This document shows, piece after piece, positions 125-57,296 of a stretch of DNA of 64,000 nucleotides. Source of the DNA: Escherichia coli. GTDB lineage: Bacteria > Pseudomonadota > Gammaproteobacteria > Enterobacterales > Enterobacteriaceae. The translations under genes were made by a program, and so were the position numbers. Position 1 is the stretch's first letter. The number at the start of each line of letters is the position of its first letter. Below the pieces are notes generated by a model. That model saw only the letters and a list, made by a program, of their open reading frames with translations, was not told the origin of the DNA and ran no database searches. Where the stretch lies: NCBI RefSeq assembly GCF_030384885.1, contig NZ_CP128613.1. One strand, 5' to 3'.

Positions 125-850
125 TTATTCCATTACGCCCGTCATTTTTGGGGTAAGTGCGCCATAATCATTTATTGTTCGGTAAGTAATGTTGCTTCCT
201 GCATCAGAAGGTAATTTAACTGTGCTTTCGCCCATTGGAGGCACCAATGCATTTTCAAGAACCCGAGTTCCGGCATTCAACTCTGTTACCGTCAGGTAAT
301 AGGGTGTCGGGTTAATCAGCGTCAGAGAATTCGCGCTACGACGAAATCTTAACTTTTCTGCGGCCTGATCGGGTGGCAACGCTAATTTAGCCGGGCGATA
401 GTACAGTTTTATGCGGCTGATAATTGCGAGCTGTAGCGTATTCTCAGTCAATTTTGATTTATCCATTGACGGAATCGCTTTAACGTTCATCCAGAATAAA
501 CTTTCCCGGTCCTGTGGCAATTGGTTATTTGTGGCATCAAGAATACGTAAGGTATTCTCTTTTTTTCCCTTCATCGCAAACAGAGGAGGCGTCACGATAA
601 AACGGCCATCCTTTACACCATCGGCATTTTCCACCCATGATTGAATTAAATAGGTACTATTATCATCATTATTTGTCACGGCAAGTTGCACTTGTTTTTG
701 CCCTGCCGGATAAATTACGCGAGTCGCACCTAAGGCCACTCCTGCTTCCGCGCGTCCGGCAGTCATCATTGCCATGATCATCAGGATACCTGCCAGCAAG
801 CAGAATGTTATTTCCTGCAATTTCCTTACATTGACGTTTTTATTACTCAC
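125..850 (-). CDS. fimC: Type 1 fimbrial periplasmic chaperone FimC
   Basis: 241-aa ORF with signal peptide and PapD-like chaperone sequence; operon position between fimI and fimD. Confidence 0.95.
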   Translation of the reverse strand: MSNKNVNVRKLQEITFCLLAGILMIMAMMTAGRAEAGVALGATRVIYPAGQKQVQLAVTNNDDNSTYLIQSWVENADGVKDGRFIVTPPLFAMKGKKENTLRILDATNNQLPQDRESLFWMNVKAIPSMDKSKLTENTLQLAIISRIKLYYRPAKLALPPDQAAEKLRFRRSANSLTLINPTPYYLTVTELNAGTRVLENALVPPMGESTVKLPSDAGSNITYRTINDYGALTPKMTGVME

Positions 851-886: not shown

Positions 887-1426
887 TTACTGATAGGTTA
901 AAGAGAACCAGGCCTGAGCATTGGCGATGCCGCCAGTAACCCGACGCCCGGTAGCACGATATTTGGCGATGAAATGTAACGACGTAGAGCCTGAGTAAAG
1001 TCGTTTCCAGTTTGCTGGAGGACGATTAATCGGTACAAGGTTTCCTTCATCATCAAACAACGCTACGCCAATATTGGTGGCAATCCCTGGCCCCTCTCCC
1101 ACGGAAAGCACATCCGGATTTTTACCATCCGCGACACCGTGAAACGCCACACCCACACGTTCACTCACCACCGTGCTACATTCCCGTAAATGAATAACAA
1201 AAGGCACCGGTGCGCTATCTTCCCCAACCGCATGAAACCGGTTACTGCTGATTTGCCCCATATTGACCGTCATTTGTTTATCACCAGCTTCAATCCGGCA
1301 AGCTTCTGCAATAATGACGCCCTGAAATTGCATATTTCCGCCGGGCAACGTGGTGTTCCATTTATTTCCGGCCAGAGCAAACATTGGCAGCAACGACGCT
1401 AATAGAAATAATCTCTTCCTTTTCAT
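887..1426 (-). CDS. fimI: Fimbrin-like protein FimI
   Basis: ORF trimmed to internal start [13 protein letters not shown] (179 aa); pilin-like; sits between fimA and fimC. Confidence 0.85.
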
Positions 1427-1490
1427 CGTTATTTTTATCGCACAAGGGTGGGCATCCCTGCCCGTAATGACGTCCCTGAACCTGGGTAGG

Positions 1491-2039
1491 TTATTGATAC
1501 TGAACCTTGAAGGTCGCATCCGCATTAGCAGCACCTGGGGTTGCGGCACCGGTTGCAAAGTAACGCGCCTGGAACGGAATGGTGTTAGTACCGTTATTCA
1601 GGGTTGTTTCTGCACTAAATGTCGCACCGTCCAGCGCCAGCGCAGCACCGGTTCTGTCCAGAATTTGCACACCAACATTTGTTGCGCTACCTGCAGCAGA
1701 ACTCTGCAGAGCTAGTACATCAGTATGCGTAGCATCAATTGCCGTACCTAAGAAGGCAACAGCGGCTTTTGTAGCAACAGTGGTATCGCAATCATTCAGC
1801 TGAATGTTAAAACCAACGGCAGAGCTGGTTGCTCCAGCCTGCTTCAGGCTAGCGGTACGAACCTGGCCCAACTGAACGGTTTGATCAACAGAGCCTGCAT
1901 CAACTGCGCAAGCGGCGTTAACAACTTCCCCTTTGAAGTGAACGGTCCCACCATTTACCGTCGTAGTATCGGCCAGAGCCGCTGCGGAACTGAGGGACAG
2001 AGCCGACAGAACAACGATTGCCAGAGTTTTAATTTTCAT
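1491..2039 (-). CDS. fimA: Type 1 fimbrial major subunit FimA
   Basis: ORF trimmed to [23 protein letters not shown] (signal peptide), 182 aa ending FKVQYQ; ATG at 2039-2037. Confidence 0.95.
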
Positions 2040-2157
2040 GCTGCTTTCCTTTAAAAAAACTGTTTCTAAATCGACATGGGCAGTCGTTCTGTACACTTTG
2101 TTTTGAAACGAATTGGACTGCCAACACTGCACAGTTCTTCCCCAAAAGATGAAACAT

Positions 2158-2471
2158 TTGGGGCCATTTTGACTCATAGAGGAAAGCATTACGCACGAAC
2201 TTTCTTAGTTTATTATTTGGATTTATATTCTATTAATACATTATTTTATAGATTTTTATATTGAACGCAGTGGTTTTTGGAGAGATGAATGAGGAAGTTG
2301 CTTCGAGACACAAAAACGTTAGCTTTACCTATAGCGGAGGTTATGTGAAATTAATTTATAAGAGAAACAATTTACATATCAAACAGTTAGTTGCTTTATG
2401 TCGTTTTTTTATATTTTTATGCTTGAGAACAAATACAAAACTTTTTTATGATATGGACAGTTTGGCCCCAA
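2158..2471. promoter_or_regulatory. fimS: fim switch (fimS), 314-bp invertible phase-variation element flanked by 9-bp inverted repeats
   Basis: TTGGGGCCA at 2158-2166 and its reverse complement TGGCCCCAA at 2463-2471, exactly 314 bp end to end, between fimA and fimE. Confidence 0.9.
2423..2452 (+). promoter_or_regulatory. Candidate fimA sigma70 promoter inside the switch, pointing away from fimA as given (phase OFF)
   Basis: TTGAGA (2423-2428), 18-nt spacer, TATGAT (2447-2452) on the + strand; fimA is on the - strand at lower coordinates. Confidence 0.6.
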
Positions 2472-2518
2472 TTGTATTATATTCCTTTATCTTTTTATAT
2501 TATTATCAATAAGTTACA

Positions 2519-3115
2519 TCAGGCATCTTCTCTTTTTAATTTTTCGTTTATGAGATTATTTCTTTCCCATAATCCGGCAAAACGTGCAGCATTACTGGCG
2601 GTATAACGCACAGTATGGCGAATATTTCGATGCCCGAGGTAATCCTGAATTAAACGGGTATCTGCACCACGCTCCGCCAGTTCATAACCGCAAGCATGCC
2701 TTAACATATGAGGATGAGTCTGCGTCACGGTTCCAGCTTCAATACCGGCATCGCGAATAATGCGATAGGCCTGCTGGCGAGAAAGTCGACTCCCGCGGCG
2801 AGAAATAAATATGGCGTCGGTCTGGTCAGCGCCTTTCCAGTTAATACGTTCCTGGGTCCAGCGCTCCACAGCTTCACGCTCATCAAAACGTAACGGGTGA
2901 ACGGTAGAAAATCCGTTCTTCAGTCGGCGAATATTTATTCGACCTTCGTTAAGGTCAAGATCCTGATAATGCAGATCAAGCAGTTCACTAATACGCATCC
3001 CATGCCGATATGCCAACAAAATTAGGCAATAATCTCTGGCTCCCGTTGCCCCGTAACAAACCGCCTGCATCATGTCCTGAACTTCTTTACCGGTAAGATA
3101 ACGACGTTTACTCAC
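2519..3115 (-). CDS. fimE: Fim switch recombinase FimE (tyrosine recombinase, ON-to-OFF)
   Basis: 198 aa, MSKRRYLTGKEV..., tyrosine recombinase motifs (HxxR...Y); GTG start; ends 48 bp from the switch repeat. Confidence 0.95.
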   Translation of the reverse strand: MSKRRYLTGKEVQDMMQAVCYGATGARDYCLILLAYRHGMRISELLDLHYQDLDLNEGRINIRRLKNGFSTVHPLRFDEREAVERWTQERINWKGADQTDAIFISRRGSRLSRQQAYRIIRDAGIEAGTVTQTHPHMLRHACGYELAERGADTRLIQDYLGHRNIRHTVRYTASNAARFAGLWERNNLINEKLKREDA

Positions 3116-3592
3116 AATAGTAGTACTCCTGACTGAGATATATTTGAATGAATACCTATAGGAAACCTCGATCGGTTAAAATTAGCCCAATAGATAAAAA
3201 GATAACCACACAGGAAGTTATGTGGCTATCAGTCAATTACATTAAATATCATACAAAAATAAAATATCACTGATGTGACAACATCTATTTTCATTGATTT
3301 GATTCAATATAACAATAGATTGCAGCGGATTAACTTCCAGTTGCTTAAAAAATAAAGAAAAAAGTGCAGAAACAGGAGAACTTGAGTGATGTGTAAATTT
3401 ATGAATGATTTTGTTTATTTATTTTGAAGAACATAAACCATTGTATTTTGTATGGATATGGTTAACTTAATGTTTATTATGATAATTAAGAATCACACTT
3501 ACAATAACATCAATTAATAAATAGTTAATCATTTTTGATATATCGTAAGAATAATGTATTTTTTAACACCATCCCTGGTATCTCATCTATCT

Positions 3593-4195
3593 CTATAAAA
3601 CAGCGTGATGCTGTCGTCCTCTGGCTCTATCCCAGATGCCGTAAAAACGCCCTGCATTGCTGGCGGTATACCAGACAGTATGACGAATATTGCGATGCCC
3701 AAGATAATCCTGGATAAGTCGTGTATCTATTCCCATATTCGCCAAAGCAAAACCACACGAATGGCGTAACATATGCGGATGAATCTCCAGTGATAACCCA
3801 GCATTACCACCAGAAGTCGAGATAATATGGTAAAACTGTTGCCGAGAAAGCGGGTTCCCCTTACGTGATAAAAATACCCACTCGCTCTCAGCATGCGGAT
3901 AAGAAGTACGTATACTCAACCAGTTTTTTAAAGCCTGAACTTCTTTGTTCAATAGCGGGTGCGTTGTTGAAAAGCCTTTTTTTAATCGATGGATATAGAT
4001 ACACTTTGCCTTAAGATCAATATCCGAAATCCTCAATCGGCAAATTTCACTCGCCCGGAAACCATGAATAAAACAAAGCAAAGTCAGACAATAATTACGT
4101 GCTGCATGAGGCCCGGTATTTGCTGCTTTAAGGAGTGACTCGATTTCACTATGGGTCAGGAAGTTCCTTTTTTTGTTATCAGCCTTATTCTTCAT
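3593..4195 (-). CDS. fimB: Fim switch recombinase FimB (tyrosine recombinase)
   Basis: 200 aa, MKNKADNKKRNFLTHSEIESLL..., paralog of FimE. Confidence 0.95.
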   Translation of the reverse strand: MKNKADNKKRNFLTHSEIESLLKAANTGPHAARNYCLTLLCFIHGFRASEICRLRISDIDLKAKCIYIHRLKKGFSTTHPLLNKEVQALKNWLSIRTSYPHAESEWVFLSRKGNPLSRQQFYHIISTSGGNAGLSLEIHPHMLRHSCGFALANMGIDTRLIQDYLGHRNIRHTVWYTASNAGRFYGIWDRARGRQHHAVL

Positions 4196-16360: not shown

Positions 16361-16909
16361 GTCTGTCGGCCCGACTGGGTTCCCTATGAGGTTGTCACGC
16401 ACACCACAGAATTCCTGCGCGAAGGCATCAAACGGGAGAAATTAAGCGACGCACAAATCCGCGAACTGGAAGAACAAGGCATAGATCCCAATACGCTGGA
16501 GTTTGATGGTAAGGCGCTGGATGAGGCGATCTACAACAAAGACACCAACCGCTATATCCTGCGTAACCTGATGGAAAATGGCCTGAAAGATCGGGACGGC
16601 CAGTTGCCTGGTAAAACCATCATTTTCGCCCGTAACCACAAACACGCGCTGCTGTTGAATGAATTGTTCGACGATATGTACCCGGAAGGGATTGATGCTG
16701 GCGTTGATTTTAAAGATCGCACGCAGGCGGCGTTTGTTGTACCAAAAGAAGATATTGCTGCGCAGAAATACGACCTCTCTATTAATCGTTATAAAGAAGT
16801 GGTGTATCAGGCTGAGGAGTATGAAGATCCGAAAGTGATACTGAAGCGGTTAAAAGATCTGGAAAATGAGATTCTGGCGGATCTGAATGAGCTGGAGGGA
16901 ATGCTGTGA
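16361..16909 (+). pseudogene. 5'-truncated remnant of the R-M gene that precedes hsdS (hsdM-like C-terminus)
   Basis: In-frame coding sequence from 16361 with no start until ATG 16571; C-terminal KYDLSINRYKE motif; stop overlaps hsdS start (GTGA at 16906-16909). Confidence 0.5.
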
Positions 16910-18090
16910 GTTGGCCGTTAGGAAAAGTTTCCGATATTGCTGCTGTTATATCCGGTTTTGCTTTTAAAAGCGAATGGTTTGGTACAGGAGACGCAAAGGT
17001 TATCCGAATTGGCGATCTTAAGAACGGAAAAATCGATCTTAGTGATGCAATGATCTTTGATCATAAAACTAATAAAGTTCGCGAACAATTTAGAATCAAA
17101 AGCGGCGATATTTTAATGGCTCTTTCTGGCGCAACTGTTGGGAAGATCGCAGTTGCTGATGCTGAAGCTGAAGGTGCATATCTTAATCAACGAGTAGCAG
17201 TGATTCGAGGGCGAAATCATGAAAATGCAGAATATTTAAAATACGTATTTTCAGGACACCCTCTCCAAAAACTACTCCTAAATGCAGGTGGTGCGGCACA
17301 GCCAAATCTTAGCTCTAAAGACTTGGCAGAGATGGAAATACCTATTCCCCCTCTTACCGAACAAAAAAGAATCTCAACCATACTTGATAAAGTAAATGGC
17401 ATACGTCAAAAGCGCGAGCAAGCCATAAAGCTGGCTGATAATTTTTTGCATACCATTTTTCATGAGATGTTTGGCGATCCTGTTAAAAACCCGAAGGGAT
17501 GGGATGTCGCCTCTTTATTAGAATATGGTTCATTCAAAAATGGAATGAATTTTTCAAAAGGTGAATTGGGATCTGCTTTGAAGTGCCTAGGAGTTGGTGA
17601 TTTCAAATCACTGGCAACGATTACCTGTATGGACAATATCGGTGAAATTGAATTAAATACTCTTCCTTCGGATGATTATCTTTTGAAAGATGGTGATATT
17701 GTCTTTGTCCGTTCTAATGGTAATAAAGCCTTGGTCGGAAGATGTCTTACTATTTATCCAAACAAAGAGAAAGTCACATTTAGTGGGTTTTGCATTCGAT
17801 ACAGAATAAAAAATCCTGCAATCACGCCAGAATATCTCAACTTCCTTTTCCGTACACCGTCAATGAAACAGCAAATGTTGAGCGGGGGCCAAGGGGCTAA
17901 TATTCAGAATATTAGCCAAGGTACCTTATCTGCACTCAGGATACCTGTACCTCCATTGGATAAACAACTTGCTTTTGCCAGATTGGTTGATTTCCATGCA
18001 TCTATTGTGAAAAAACAATATGATAAAATGGCTGAATCCGAAAAACTCTTCAATGCCTTGACTGGTGATTTTTTCACATTTAATGAGTGA
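16906..18090 (+). CDS. hsdS: Type I restriction-modification specificity subunit HsdS
   Basis: 394 aa, two target-recognition-like halves with conserved spacer motifs (NQRVAVIRG, LPPLTEQKRI, IPVPPLDKQ); GTG start with RBS GGAGGGA. Confidence 0.85.
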   Translation: MSWPLGKVSDIAAVISGFAFKSEWFGTGDAKVIRIGDLKNGKIDLSDAMIFDHKTNKVREQFRIKSGDILMALSGATVGKIAVADAEAEGAYLNQRVAVIRGRNHENAEYLKYVFSGHPLQKLLLNAGGAAQPNLSSKDLAEMEIPIPPLTEQKRISTILDKVNGIRQKREQAIKLADNFLHTIFHEMFGDPVKNPKGWDVASLLEYGSFKNGMNFSKGELGSALKCLGVGDFKSLATITCMDNIGEIELNTLPSDDYLLKDGDIVFVRSNGNKALVGRCLTIYPNKEKVTFSGFCIRYRIKNPAITPEYLNFLFRTPSMKQQMLSGGQGANIQNISQGTLSALRIPVPPLDKQLAFARLVDFHASIVKKQYDKMAESEKLFNALTGDFFTFNE

Positions 18091-22304: not shown

Positions 22305-22420
22305 GTGGGTTGAGTCAGGTTGACTTCAGTTGAGGGGAAAAGCTGGAAAAGCCTTGTGTAGCGCGGATTTCAGGCATAAAAAAAGACCTCAGTTGAGGTC
22401 TATTTACATACTTTTGGTGC
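22305..22420. repeat. Direct repeat copy 2 (integrase-proximal), covering the leuX terminator hairpin and tRNA 3' end
   Basis: 22361-22420 identical to 12894-12953; contains GACCTCAGTTGAGGTC hairpin plus T-run on the minus strand (leuX terminator). Confidence 0.8.
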
Positions 22421-22499
22421 CGAAGGCCGGACTCGAACCGGCACGTATTTCTACGGTTGATTTTGAATCAACTGCGTCTACCGATTTCGCCACTTCGGC
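22415..22499 (-). tRNA. leuX: tRNA-Leu (CAA anticodon), leuX
   Basis: Reverse complement reads GCCGAAGTGGCGAAATCGGTAGACGCAGTTGATTCAAAATCAACCGTAGAAATACGTGCCGGTTCGAGTCCGGCCTTCGGCACCA, 85 nt with encoded CCA. Confidence 0.95.
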
Positions 22500-27952: not shown

Positions 27953-29467
<1,515 letters not shown>

Positions 29468-43880: not shown

Positions 43881-46577
43881 TTACTGCCAGCCGTAACGAC
43901 GGCTATAGAACCCTTTCACCAACTGGGTTAACGTCATATACCCTGCCAGAATCGCAACCAGCCACGGGAAATAGCTTAACGGCAGCGCCTGCAGTTGCAG
44001 ATAACTGGCCAACGGCGAAAACGGCAATGCGATCCCGACTATCATCACAATCACGGTCATGATCATTAACGGCCACGATGCACAGCTCTGAATAAACGGT
44101 ACACGACGGGTACGGATCATATGCACAATCAGCGTTTGCGACAGTAATCCCACCACAAACCAGCCCGACTGGAACAGCGTTTGCGTTTCCGGCGTGTTGG
44201 CATGGAATACCCACCACATCAGGCAAAACGTCAGAATATCGAAGATCGAACTGATCGGTCCGAAGAAGATCATAAAGCGCCCCAAATCCGCCGGATTCCA
44301 ACGCTGAGGCTTTTGAACTTGCTCGTCGTCGACGTTATCAAACGGGATCGCCACCTGTGACACATCGTACAGCAGGTTCTGGATCAGTAAGTGTAAAGGC
44401 AGCATCGGCAGGAAGGGCAAGAAAGCACTCGCCACCAGCACGCTGAACACATTACCGAAGTTAGAACTCGCCGTCATTTTGATGTATTTCAGCATGTTGG
44501 CGAAAGTGCGACGTCCCTCAATAACCCCCTCCTCCAGCACCATCAGGCTTTTTTCCAGCAGGATGATATCAGCCGCTTCACGGGCAATATCTACCGCGCC
44601 GTCCACAGAAATGCCGATATCCGCAGCGCGTAAGGCGGGAGCATCATTAATACCATCGCCCATAAAGCCAACCACATGCCCTTCGCGCTTTAGCAAGGTC
44701 ACGATGCGTTCTTTATGCATCGGCGTCAGGCGAGCAAACAGCGTGGTGCGCTGTGCAAGATTTGCCAGTTCGTCGTCAGATAGCGTTTCAATATCACTAC
44801 CAATGACCACCTCTCCCGCGTCCAGTCCCACTTCATGGCACACTTTCGCCGCCACTAACTCGCTGTCGCCAGTAAGGATTTTCACGGTAATGCCACTCGC
44901 TTTTAATGCCTTCAGTGCCGGAGCTGTTGTCTCTTTCGGCGGATCAAGGAAAGCAATATATCCTTCGAGGATCAGGTCGGATTCATCCGCCCGCTGGTAA
45001 TCCCCTTCACGTGCTGGCAGGTATTTCGTCGCCACCGCAACCACGCGCAGCCCCTGACGATTCAGCGTATCAGTAACCCGCTTAATCTTACGCAGTATGA
45101 TGTCATCAAGCGGCACAATCTCACCATTGTGACGCACCTGCGAACACACATTGAGGATTTCCTGCAATGCGCCTTTGCAAACCAGTTGATGATGTTCGGT
45201 ATTCTCTGCCACTACCACCGACATCCGGCGACGCTCGAAATCAAACGGAATCTCATCAATTTTTTGCCAACGACTGGCCAGCGAGCGCGCTGACTCTTCA
45301 TCCGTACCTTCGAGCACCGCTGTATCAAGCAGGTTTTTAAGTCCGGTCTGATAATGACTGTTCAACCACGCGCTATGCAGCACCCGTTCGCTGGTTTTAC
45401 CGGAGATATCGGTATGATTCTCCAGCACAATTTTATCCTGCGTCAGGGTGCCGGTTTTATCAGTGCACAGAATATCCATAGCGCCAAAGTTCTGAATGGC
45501 ATCCAGATGTTTGACGATCACTTTCTGTTTCGACAGCTTTACGGCACCACGCGCCAGCGTCGAAGTGACAATCATCGGCAACATTTCTGGCGTTAAGCCT
45601 ACCGCGACCGAAAGTGCGAACAGTGCCGCTTCCCACCAGTCACCTTTGGTGTAACCGTTGATCAGCAACACCACCGGAGCCATCACCAGCATAAAGCGAA
45701 TCAGCAGCATACTGACGCGGCTAATCCCTTGCTGAAAGGCATTCGGCTCGCTTTCCTGCTCACTAACACGCCCCGCCAGTTGACCAAACCAGGTGTTGGC
45801 TCCTGTAGCAATCACCATTGCTTGTGCCGTGCCGCTCACCACGGTGGTACCCATAAAACACAGGGTGTCGCACTCCAGCGGATTGCTGTGCTCCGGCTGG
45901 CGAGTGGTAGCAGCTTTTTCCACGGGCAGAGACTCACCGGTTAACGACGCCTGAGCGACAAACAGATCCCGCGCCTGCAAGATACGTAAATCTGCCGGGA
46001 TCATATCCCCCGCCGCCAGTTTTATAATATCGCCGGGCACTAGTTGGTCTATCGGAATTTCCAGCCAGCCATTTTCACCTTTATCGTTAATTACGCGCAG
46101 TACCGTCGCGGTATTACTGACCATCGCTTTCAGGGCATCTGCCGCTTTGGTGGAACGAGCTTCCTGAATAAAGTTCAGCAACGTAGAAATAGCGACCATT
46201 AGCGCGATAACACCTGCGGCAAATAAATCTTCCGTGGCGTAAGAAATAGCACCGAGAATGGTGAGCAAAATATTAAAGGGGTTGCGATAGCAGACCCATA
46301 AATGTACCCACCACGGCGACGGTTGTTGCGCGGGTAATTTATTTTCACCATGTTGTTCGCGGGCAGATTCCACTTCCGCCTGATTTAACCCTTCCGGATG
46401 GGTATTGAACGTTTTCCATAATTCCTGTTCTGGCATCACCGCCATTTTCAGGCAATGCGCACTTAAGGACGGCGGGACCGCCGTATTCACTGTCTGCTGC
46501 GCGCCAGGCAATGGATCGCGATGAACCAGACGGGAAGGTAAATGGCGAATGAGCCGGGTAAAAATTTCTTTAAACAT
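43881..46577 (-). CDS. mgtA: Mg2+-importing P-type ATPase MgtA
   Basis: 898 aa, P-type ATPase motifs DKTGTLT and GDGINDAPAL. Confidence 0.97.
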   Translation of the reverse strand: MFKEIFTRLIRHLPSRLVHRDPLPGAQQTVNTAVPPSLSAHCLKMAVMPEQELWKTFNTHPEGLNQAEVESAREQHGENKLPAQQPSPWWVHLWVCYRNPFNILLTILGAISYATEDLFAAGVIALMVAISTLLNFIQEARSTKAADALKAMVSNTATVLRVINDKGENGWLEIPIDQLVPGDIIKLAAGDMIPADLRILQARDLFVAQASLTGESLPVEKAATTRQPEHSNPLECDTLCFMGTTVVSGTAQAMVIATGANTWFGQLAGRVSEQESEPNAFQQGISRVSMLLIRFMLVMAPVVLLINGYTKGDWWEAALFALSVAVGLTPEMLPMIVTSTLARGAVKLSKQKVIVKHLDAIQNFGAMDILCTDKTGTLTQDKIVLENHTDISGKTSERVLHSAWLNSHYQTGLKNLLDTAVLEGTDEESARSLASRWQKIDEIPFDFERRRMSVVVAENTEHHQLVCKGALQEILNVCSQVRHNGEIVPLDDIILRKIKRVTDTLNRQGLRVVAVATKYLPAREGDYQRADESDLILEGYIAFLDPPKETTAPALKALKASGITVKILTGDSELVAAKVCHEVGLDAGEVVIGSDIETLSDDELANLAQRTTLFARLTPMHKERIVTLLKREGHVVGFMGDGINDAPALRAADIGISVDGAVDIAREAADIILLEKSLMVLEEGVIEGRRTFANMLKYIKMTASSNFGNVFSVLVASAFLPFLPMLPLHLLIQNLLYDVSQVAIPFDNVDDEQVQKPQRWNPADLGRFMIFFGPISSIFDILTFCLMWWVFHANTPETQTLFQSGWFVVGLLSQTLIVHMIRTRRVPFIQSCASWPLMIMTVIVMIVGIALPFSPLASYLQLQALPLSYFPWLVAILAGYMTLTQLVKGFYSRRYGWQ

Positions 46578-46850
46578 AAGGAGTCCCTCCGCACTGACTG
46601 AAACAGTGCAGAAATGTCTTCAGGCGTGGCGAAGCCTTACCTGAAGGTAATAAAGCTGAGCTGGGACGTTAAAACGTCACGGCCTTACGCATCCGGTAAC
46701 GCCGTGAAAAGACGGGCTTACCGGAAAAGTTTTAATCTCCGTCGAGGGAGAGGCGTGGGATCAGGTTCCATATAACCTCCGATAAGTGAAAAAAGCGCCG
46801 CAAATAATAAGGAGAATCCAATAATATTCGTGGCATTTATGGCGATATAA
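46578..46850 (-). promoter_or_regulatory. mgtA 5' leader (Mg2+/proline-sensing regulatory leader containing mgtL)
   Basis: Long leader upstream of mgtA containing the proline-rich mgtL ORF; established for mgtA. Confidence 0.7.
46718..46771 (-). CDS. mgtL: mgtA leader peptide MgtL
   Basis: 17-aa [20 protein letters not shown] with GGAGG RBS, inside the mgtA leader. Confidence 0.85.
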
Positions 46851-57192: not shown

Positions 57193-57296
57193 TTGCCGGA
57201 TGCGGTGCACCTGTAGGCCTGATAAGACGCATCAAGCGTCGCATCAGGCACTATGCTCAAATGCCGGATGCGGCGTGAACGCCTTATCCGGCCTAC
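57193..57296. repeat. BIME (REP cluster) between yjgA and mpl
   Basis: GCCGGATGCGGTGCACCTGTAGGCCTGATAAGACGCATCAAGCGTCGCATCAGGC and GCCGGATGCGGCGTGAACGCCTTATCCGGCCTACA. Confidence 0.8.

Follow-up and report, generated by a model that had tools for sequence, protein, structure and literature searches.

The fimS invertible promoter element of an Escherichia coli type 1 fimbrial locus, almost certainly deposited in the OFF orientation

The fim switch of Escherichia coli has served since 1985 as the textbook example of phase variation by an invertible promoter, and the K-12 element, fimS, is reportedly the one described by Abraham and colleagues in that year. In the mrp system of Proteus mirabilis, a promoter likewise lies on a short invertible segment beside a fimbrial operon and is served by a tyrosine recombinase, MrpI, but the repeats and the recombinases differ. 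In the E. coli system, FimB can turn fimS either way and FimE works mainly in the ON-to-OFF direction, each by site-specific recombination at 9-bp repeats; IHF, Lrp, Fis, and H-NS are cofactors of inversion, and the element bears both the fimA promoter and a Rho-dependent terminator for fimE mRNA (PMC9993118, PMC9820224, PMC9096935).

The window analyzed here is a 64,000-nucleotide stretch of an E. coli genome (contig NZ_CP128613.1), the first 4.2 kb of which hold the type 1 fimbrial locus on the minus strand; nanC comes next, on the plus strand. The gene order fimB-fimE-fimS-fimA-fimI-fimC is supported by the open reading frames, by RefSeq annotation of a 99.9% identical locus, and by alignment to E. 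coli K-12 MG1655. Features of the locus are as follows.

125-850, minus strand: fimC (ORF list; RefSeq annotation of the 99.9% identical locus in E. coli 2013C-4282)
887-1426, minus strand: fimI (ORF list; same RefSeq annotation)
1491-2039, minus strand: fimA, encoding the major subunit of type 1 fimbriae (ORF list; RefSeq annotation of the nearly identical locus)
2158-2471, no strand assigned: fimS, 314-bp invertible element, read as OFF in the sequenced orientation (exact 9-bp inverted repeats; collinear with deposited MG1655)
2158-2166, no strand assigned: IRR, the fimA-proximal 9-bp inverted repeat, TTGGGGCCA on the plus strand (exact match)
2463-2471, no strand assigned: IRL, the fimE-proximal 9-bp inverted repeat, TGGCCCCAA on the plus strand (exact match)
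2519-3115, minus strand: fimE, tyrosine recombinase (ON to OFF), intact, 198 amino acids, catalytic residues present
3593-4195, minus strand: fimB, tyrosine recombinase (both directions), intact, 200 amino acids, catalytic residues present

The segment at 2158-2471 is almost certainly fimS, the invertible element that carries the promoter of the type 1 fimbrial operon in E. coli, in phase OFF and most likely phase-variable. The span from TTGGGGCCA to TGGCCCCAA, the canonical fimS repeats, is 314 bp, and the boundaries proposed for it in the original prediction proved exact. The K-12 element (MG1655, NC_000913.3, 4542682-4542995) has the same length, the same repeats, and the same flanking genes; its ends are identical to 2158-2189 and 2445-2471 of the window, and it shares the promoter hexamers, their 18-nt spacing, the IHF sites, and the OFF orientation. 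It differs by 38 interior substitutions, and its BstUI and SnaBI sites are lost in the window allele.

A repeat finder places the arms within a 21-nt imperfect inverted repeat (2146-2166 and 2463-2483, 81% complementary) with the perfect 9-mer as its core, and reports a second perfect 9-nt inverted pair within the same 900 bp. A promoter scan of 1900-3300 found six sigma70-like sites, against 4.9 +/- 2.3 in shuffles of this AT-rich DNA. The 9-nt repeats and the promoter match, each taken alone, are therefore not beyond chance expectation. We regard the fimS feature as real because canonical repeat identity, spacing, synteny, and conservation across genera are found together.

Conservation was assessed by scanning a single genome from each species for the two repeats, using an 18-base pattern. 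The scan returned 24 matches, of which eight are chance matches with no fim neighbors. In the remaining sixteen, all enterobacterial, the element stands between fimE and fimA; these loci come from Escherichia, Shimwellia, Citrobacter, Enterobacter, Raoultella, and Klebsiella. The switches of the five other genera have the same 9-bp repeats, are 314-325 bp long, and keep the fimE-fimS-fimA order. Their -10 TATGAT and -35 TTGnnA lie at the same distance from the repeat as in the window, except in the Enterobacter soli locus; in Shimwellia the -10 reads TATCAT. Their interiors are largely unalignable with that of the window, and their -35 is TTGCAA where the window has TTGAGA, although the IHF-2 core is kept. 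The blocks conserved in the cross-genus alignment are 2158-2175, the -35 TTGnnA at 2423-2428, TTTTTATGAT at 2443-2452 (an extended -10), 2457-2471, and the ATCA core of the IHF site. The first of these, retained in 18 sequences from six genera, extends IRR inward to 2175 and is presumed to be a recombinase half-site; the block that begins at 2457 similarly extends IRL inward.

Fourteen of the sixteen species representatives have the orientation seen in the window, the opposite one occurring in E. coli E69 and Shimwellia pseudoproteus. E. coli E69 (CP089930.1) is the GTDB representative of E. coli, and its fimS, at 513-827, was deposited ON; this element is 315 bp long, with one extra base that gives a promoter spacer of 19 nt.

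Both recombinases required for inversion are full length and retain the catalytic Arg-His-Arg-Tyr tetrad, with residue numbers taken from PMC9820224. FimE (198 residues) has R41, H136, R139, and Y171 and carries five substitutions relative to K-12; FimB (200 residues) has R47, H141, R144, and Y176 and carries one. Nucleotide identity to K-12 is 97.7% for fimB, 96.1% for fimE, 97.8% for fimI, and 90.7% for fimA. Compared with this last value, the fimA-fimI intergenic region (1427-1490, minus strand) is 100% identical to K-12, and the matching spacer in MG1655 is annotated as the small RNA FimR2 (b4838). The fimB-fimE intergenic region holds, downstream of fimB at 3201-3230 (minus strand), a hairpin resembling a terminator with a run of T after it, probably the fimB terminator.

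The promoter assigned to fimA, its expected start, and the predicted protein-binding sites are the following.

2423-2452, plus strand: putative fimA promoter, -35 TTGAGA at 2423-2428, 18-nt spacer, -10 TATGAT at 2447-2452 (10 of 12 consensus positions; conservation)
2457-2460, plus strand: predicted transcription start, 5-8 nt past the -10, just within the repeat boundary (from promoter geometry)
2377-2389, plus strand: IHF-2, predicted, inside the switch, TATCAAACAGTTA matching WATCAANNNNTTR (consensus search)
2504-2516, plus strand: IHF-1, predicted, outside the switch on the fimE side, TATCAATAAGTTA (consensus search with WATCAANNNNTTR)
2200-2235, minus strand: counterpart of the K-12 Fis and LRP-2 site region covered by oligo FBSFOR2 (alignment to K-12; oligo sequence in PMC9993118)

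TTGAGA-18-TATGAT lies beside the fimE-side repeat and is directed toward fimE, away from fimA, at exactly the coordinates and on the strand first proposed for it. It had also been called the only good sigma70-like promoter in the element, a description that is too strong: two further sites also score 10 of 12, namely TGGACA-18-TATATT at 2454-2483 (plus strand) and TTGATA-16-TATAAA on the minus strand, running from 2382 to 2355 toward fimA. TTGAGA-18-TATGAT is the sole site conserved in position in other genera. Position-matched TTGnnA-18-TATGAT is found in the Klebsiella, Raoultella, and Citrobacter loci and in most of those from Enterobacter; it is modified in Shimwellia and absent from the corresponding position in Enterobacter soli. 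The hexamers are the same in K-12 while the 18-nt spacer carries four substitutions, the pattern that would be expected of a functional promoter. Placement of this site near one repeat agrees with the published description, which puts the promoter and the Fis site at opposite ends (PMC9993118), and the fimA start has been described as an A inside fimS (PMC9096935). Assignment as the fimA promoter is thus supported by secondary literature statements, conservation, and geometry. In the OFF state, a transcript starting at about 2457-2460 would cross IRL and enter the 3' end of fimE on the opposite strand; PMC4272514 mentions that fimE is transcribed antisense in OFF.

The consensus search for IHF sites returned one match inside the element and one adjoining the fimE-side repeat, in agreement with the published placement of IHF-2 within fimS and of IHF-1 adjacent to IRL (PMC9993118). 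Both are predictions from sequence. The ATCA core of IHF-2 is conserved across genera, and IHF-1 is kept in K-12 although the 47-bp spacer between fimE and the repeat (2472-2518) is only 80.9% identical.

Orientation was called by reference to deposited MG1655. Comparison with a reference had been suggested as a check on the original prediction, and when run it showed the window element to align end to end, uninverted, with NC_000913.3, which is OFF by published assays. For primers OL4/OL20 with BstUI, digestion in silico of deposited MG1655 gives 540+188 bp, and of its inverted form 294+434 bp; those published are 539+187 (OFF) and 433+293 (ON) (PMC9993118). For Inv-1/Inv-2 with SnaBI, the deposited form gives 162+442 bp and the inverted form 406+198 bp, against published sizes of 440+161 for OFF and 403+198 for ON (PMC4374849). 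Deposited MG1655 is OFF by two independent published assays, and its inversion in silico gives ON sizes. Because in-silico digests find neither a BstUI nor a SnaBI site in the window fimS allele, the orientation of the window was assigned through collinearity with MG1655. Read mapping finds 98-99% of cells in the orientation of the K-12 reference, and quoted rates are about 1e-3 for OFF to ON and about 1e-1 for ON to OFF (PMC4272514); taken together, these figures likewise imply that the reference orientation is OFF.

Position of the Fis and LRP-2 region gives a second line of argument. This site is described as marking the promoter-distal end of the element, which is the right-hand end in OFF (PMC9993118). 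In the window its counterpart at 2200-2235 adjoins the fimA-side repeat, in the promoter-distal half, and therefore the promoter end faces fimE, as the OFF reading holds. A natural ON genome, that of isolate SC418, shows the alternative arrangement: flanks identical, interior inverted, and promoter reading into fimA. The MG1655-like arrangement with its OFF fragment sizes and the promoter end turned toward fimE both bear out the phase proposed for this locus. The word "captured," applied to the switch at the outset, holds only for the consensus of the sequenced population, and a locked switch is not implied.

The commonness of each orientation was surveyed in 5,426 complete E. coli genomes, 4,721 of which have the region. 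To be assigned an orientation, a genome had to match a 714-bp query over 80% or more of its length on a single strand, a result that only the same orientation can give. The orientation of the window was found in 4,455 of the 4,721, and the opposite one, matched by a query inverted in silico and scored by the same rule, in 246. About 94-95% of orientable complete E. coli assemblies are OFF. The switch described here is an already known system in its commonest state, and the observation, while correct, is ordinary.

The allele itself is rare: just 16 of the 4,721 genomes (about 0.3%) come within 95% of it over the 714-bp query. Identity to K-12 fimS is 87.9%, well below the 96-98% of the neighboring fimB, fimE, and fimI, with no indels, and all 38 substitutions fall between 2190 and 2444, four of them in the promoter spacer and seven in the Fis and LRP-2 oligo region. 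These seven, among 36 positions read from the alignment, include two within the eight bases whose replacement abolished Fis binding (PMC9993118). Diversity in fimS is not peculiar to the source strain, since the MG1655 and E69 elements themselves differ by 9%. With 38 interior differences, some in the Fis and LRP-2 region, switching behavior may differ from that of K-12. There is a small chance that the divergent allele sets another switching bias or environmental response than the K-12 switch, in which case it would be a natural regulatory variant rather than the product of neutral drift. A practical consequence concerns orientation assays: those based on BstUI and SnaBI fail for this allele, and HinfI or junction-specific PCR is needed. 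One standard diagnostic restriction site is left.

2171-2175, plus strand: HinfI site GACTC (in-silico digest)

On the OL4/OL20 amplicon, HinfI would yield fragments of 167+545+14 as sequenced and 450+262+14 if inverted.

Three other accounts of the sequenced orientation deserve consideration. The switch might be locked OFF in this lineage, the rare divergent allele or its altered regulator sites blocking OFF-to-ON inversion. Natural locked-OFF strains do exist, EPEC E2348/69 being an example (PMC9096935). Divergence of 12% from K-12 and the changed Fis and LRP-2 region lend this account some weight, as does the distribution of the allele, with all 13 of the close relatives among the matches listed (from the 16 within 95%) sharing one orientation, and with full-length matches listed for the inverted query coming from K-12-like genomes only. 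At an ON base rate of about 5%, however, zero ON among 16 genomes is expected by chance (0.95^16 is about 0.44). Inspection of the recombinases, repeats, IHF sites, and promoter found no defect in cis or in trans: FimB and FimE are intact with their catalytic residues, and there is no change in the repeats, in the conserved blocks presumed to be half-sites, in either IHF site, or in the promoter hexamers. The fim switch of O157 is known to carry a deletion, whereas the window fimS has no indel. A locked-OFF switch is accordingly rejected as improbable; phase variation, with OFF as the state recorded, is the better reading, and the switch looks functional.

It is scarcely credible that the sequenced orientation is really ON, with fimA served by another site such as TTGATA-16-TATAAA (2382 to 2355, minus strand). 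That site does equal TTGAGA/TATGAT at 10 of 12, and the start assigned to the latter is a predicted one. By both published restriction assays, and by what is described of the Fis site, this orientation is nevertheless OFF, and it is the one held by 98-99% of non-fimbriate K-12 cultures (PMC4272514). Promoter scans and the cross-genus alignment found no conserved promoter directed toward fimA in the sequenced orientation, and TTGATA-16-TATAAA was rejected for the role: it is weaker in K-12, where the alignment reads TTGATA-16-TGTAAA, it is absent from the top-scoring sites of the other loci, and it overlaps IHF-2. Also very improbable, if less so, is the view that the assembler simply picked one form out of a mixed population, so that the orientation tells little about the culture. 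Through phase variation any culture does come to hold both forms (PMC4272514), and an assembler writes out a single consensus. The consensus, however, follows the majority; published proportions are about 100:1 for OFF (PMC4272514), and with 94% of complete assemblies OFF the call is informative about the majority state. This last account refines the main explanation, an ordinary switch in phase OFF, rather than competing with it, and we infer that the assembly shows the majority state of the sequenced culture.

All parts that switching requires are intact, which makes a phase-variable source strain most likely. By the published mechanism, FimB and FimE would recombine the 9-bp repeats and flip the 296 bp between them. 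With the promoter at the fimE-proximal end firing toward fimE, fimAICDFGH is left promoterless, the OFF phase. In that phase, by the literature, fimE mRNA would run into the Rho-dependent terminator within fimS, so that FimE would be lowered, and slow FimB-mediated switching from OFF to ON would remain. An OFF element in the assembly would then reflect the large majority that OFF cells make up in ordinary cultures. The finding has little significance beyond correct annotation, in which fimA should be recorded as promoterless in the deposited orientation.

The closest relative considered, E. coli 2013C-4282 (NZ_CP027579.1), shares the orientation and gene order of the window and is 99.9% identical to it across 714 bp at the switch, where one substitution, just outside the fimE-side repeat, sets the two apart. 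Positions 1-24000 of the window correspond to 35.8 kb in 2013C-4282, in four aligned pieces; about 11.8 kb of island DNA that lies between fim and leuX there is missing from the window. Annotated in the fim-leuX interval of that genome are toxin-antitoxin genes, radC, DUF932, and similar island genes. For the region of the window at 16906-18090 (plus strand) and its neighbors, annotation of the 2013C-4282 island gives type I restriction-modification M and S subunits and a DEAD/DEAH helicase, together with a phosphorothioated-DNA restriction endonuclease pseudogene and an integrase adjoining leuX. This content suggests a defense-island context. In the window, leuX, encoding tRNA-Leu(CAA), is at 22415-22499 (minus strand), about 18 kb from fimB, and leuX is reportedly needed for efficient fimB translation. 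The fim cluster has been located in a leuX-adjacent island (PMC4374849).

Farther along the window, Rfam searches gave three hits above gathering score: Ysr276 antisense RNA at 28514-28708 (minus strand, 182 bits), naRNA4 at 57216-57293 (minus strand, 86 bits), and a magnesium riboswitch at 46671-46786 (minus strand, 122 bits), this last directly upstream of an 898-residue ORF at 43881-46577 (minus strand).
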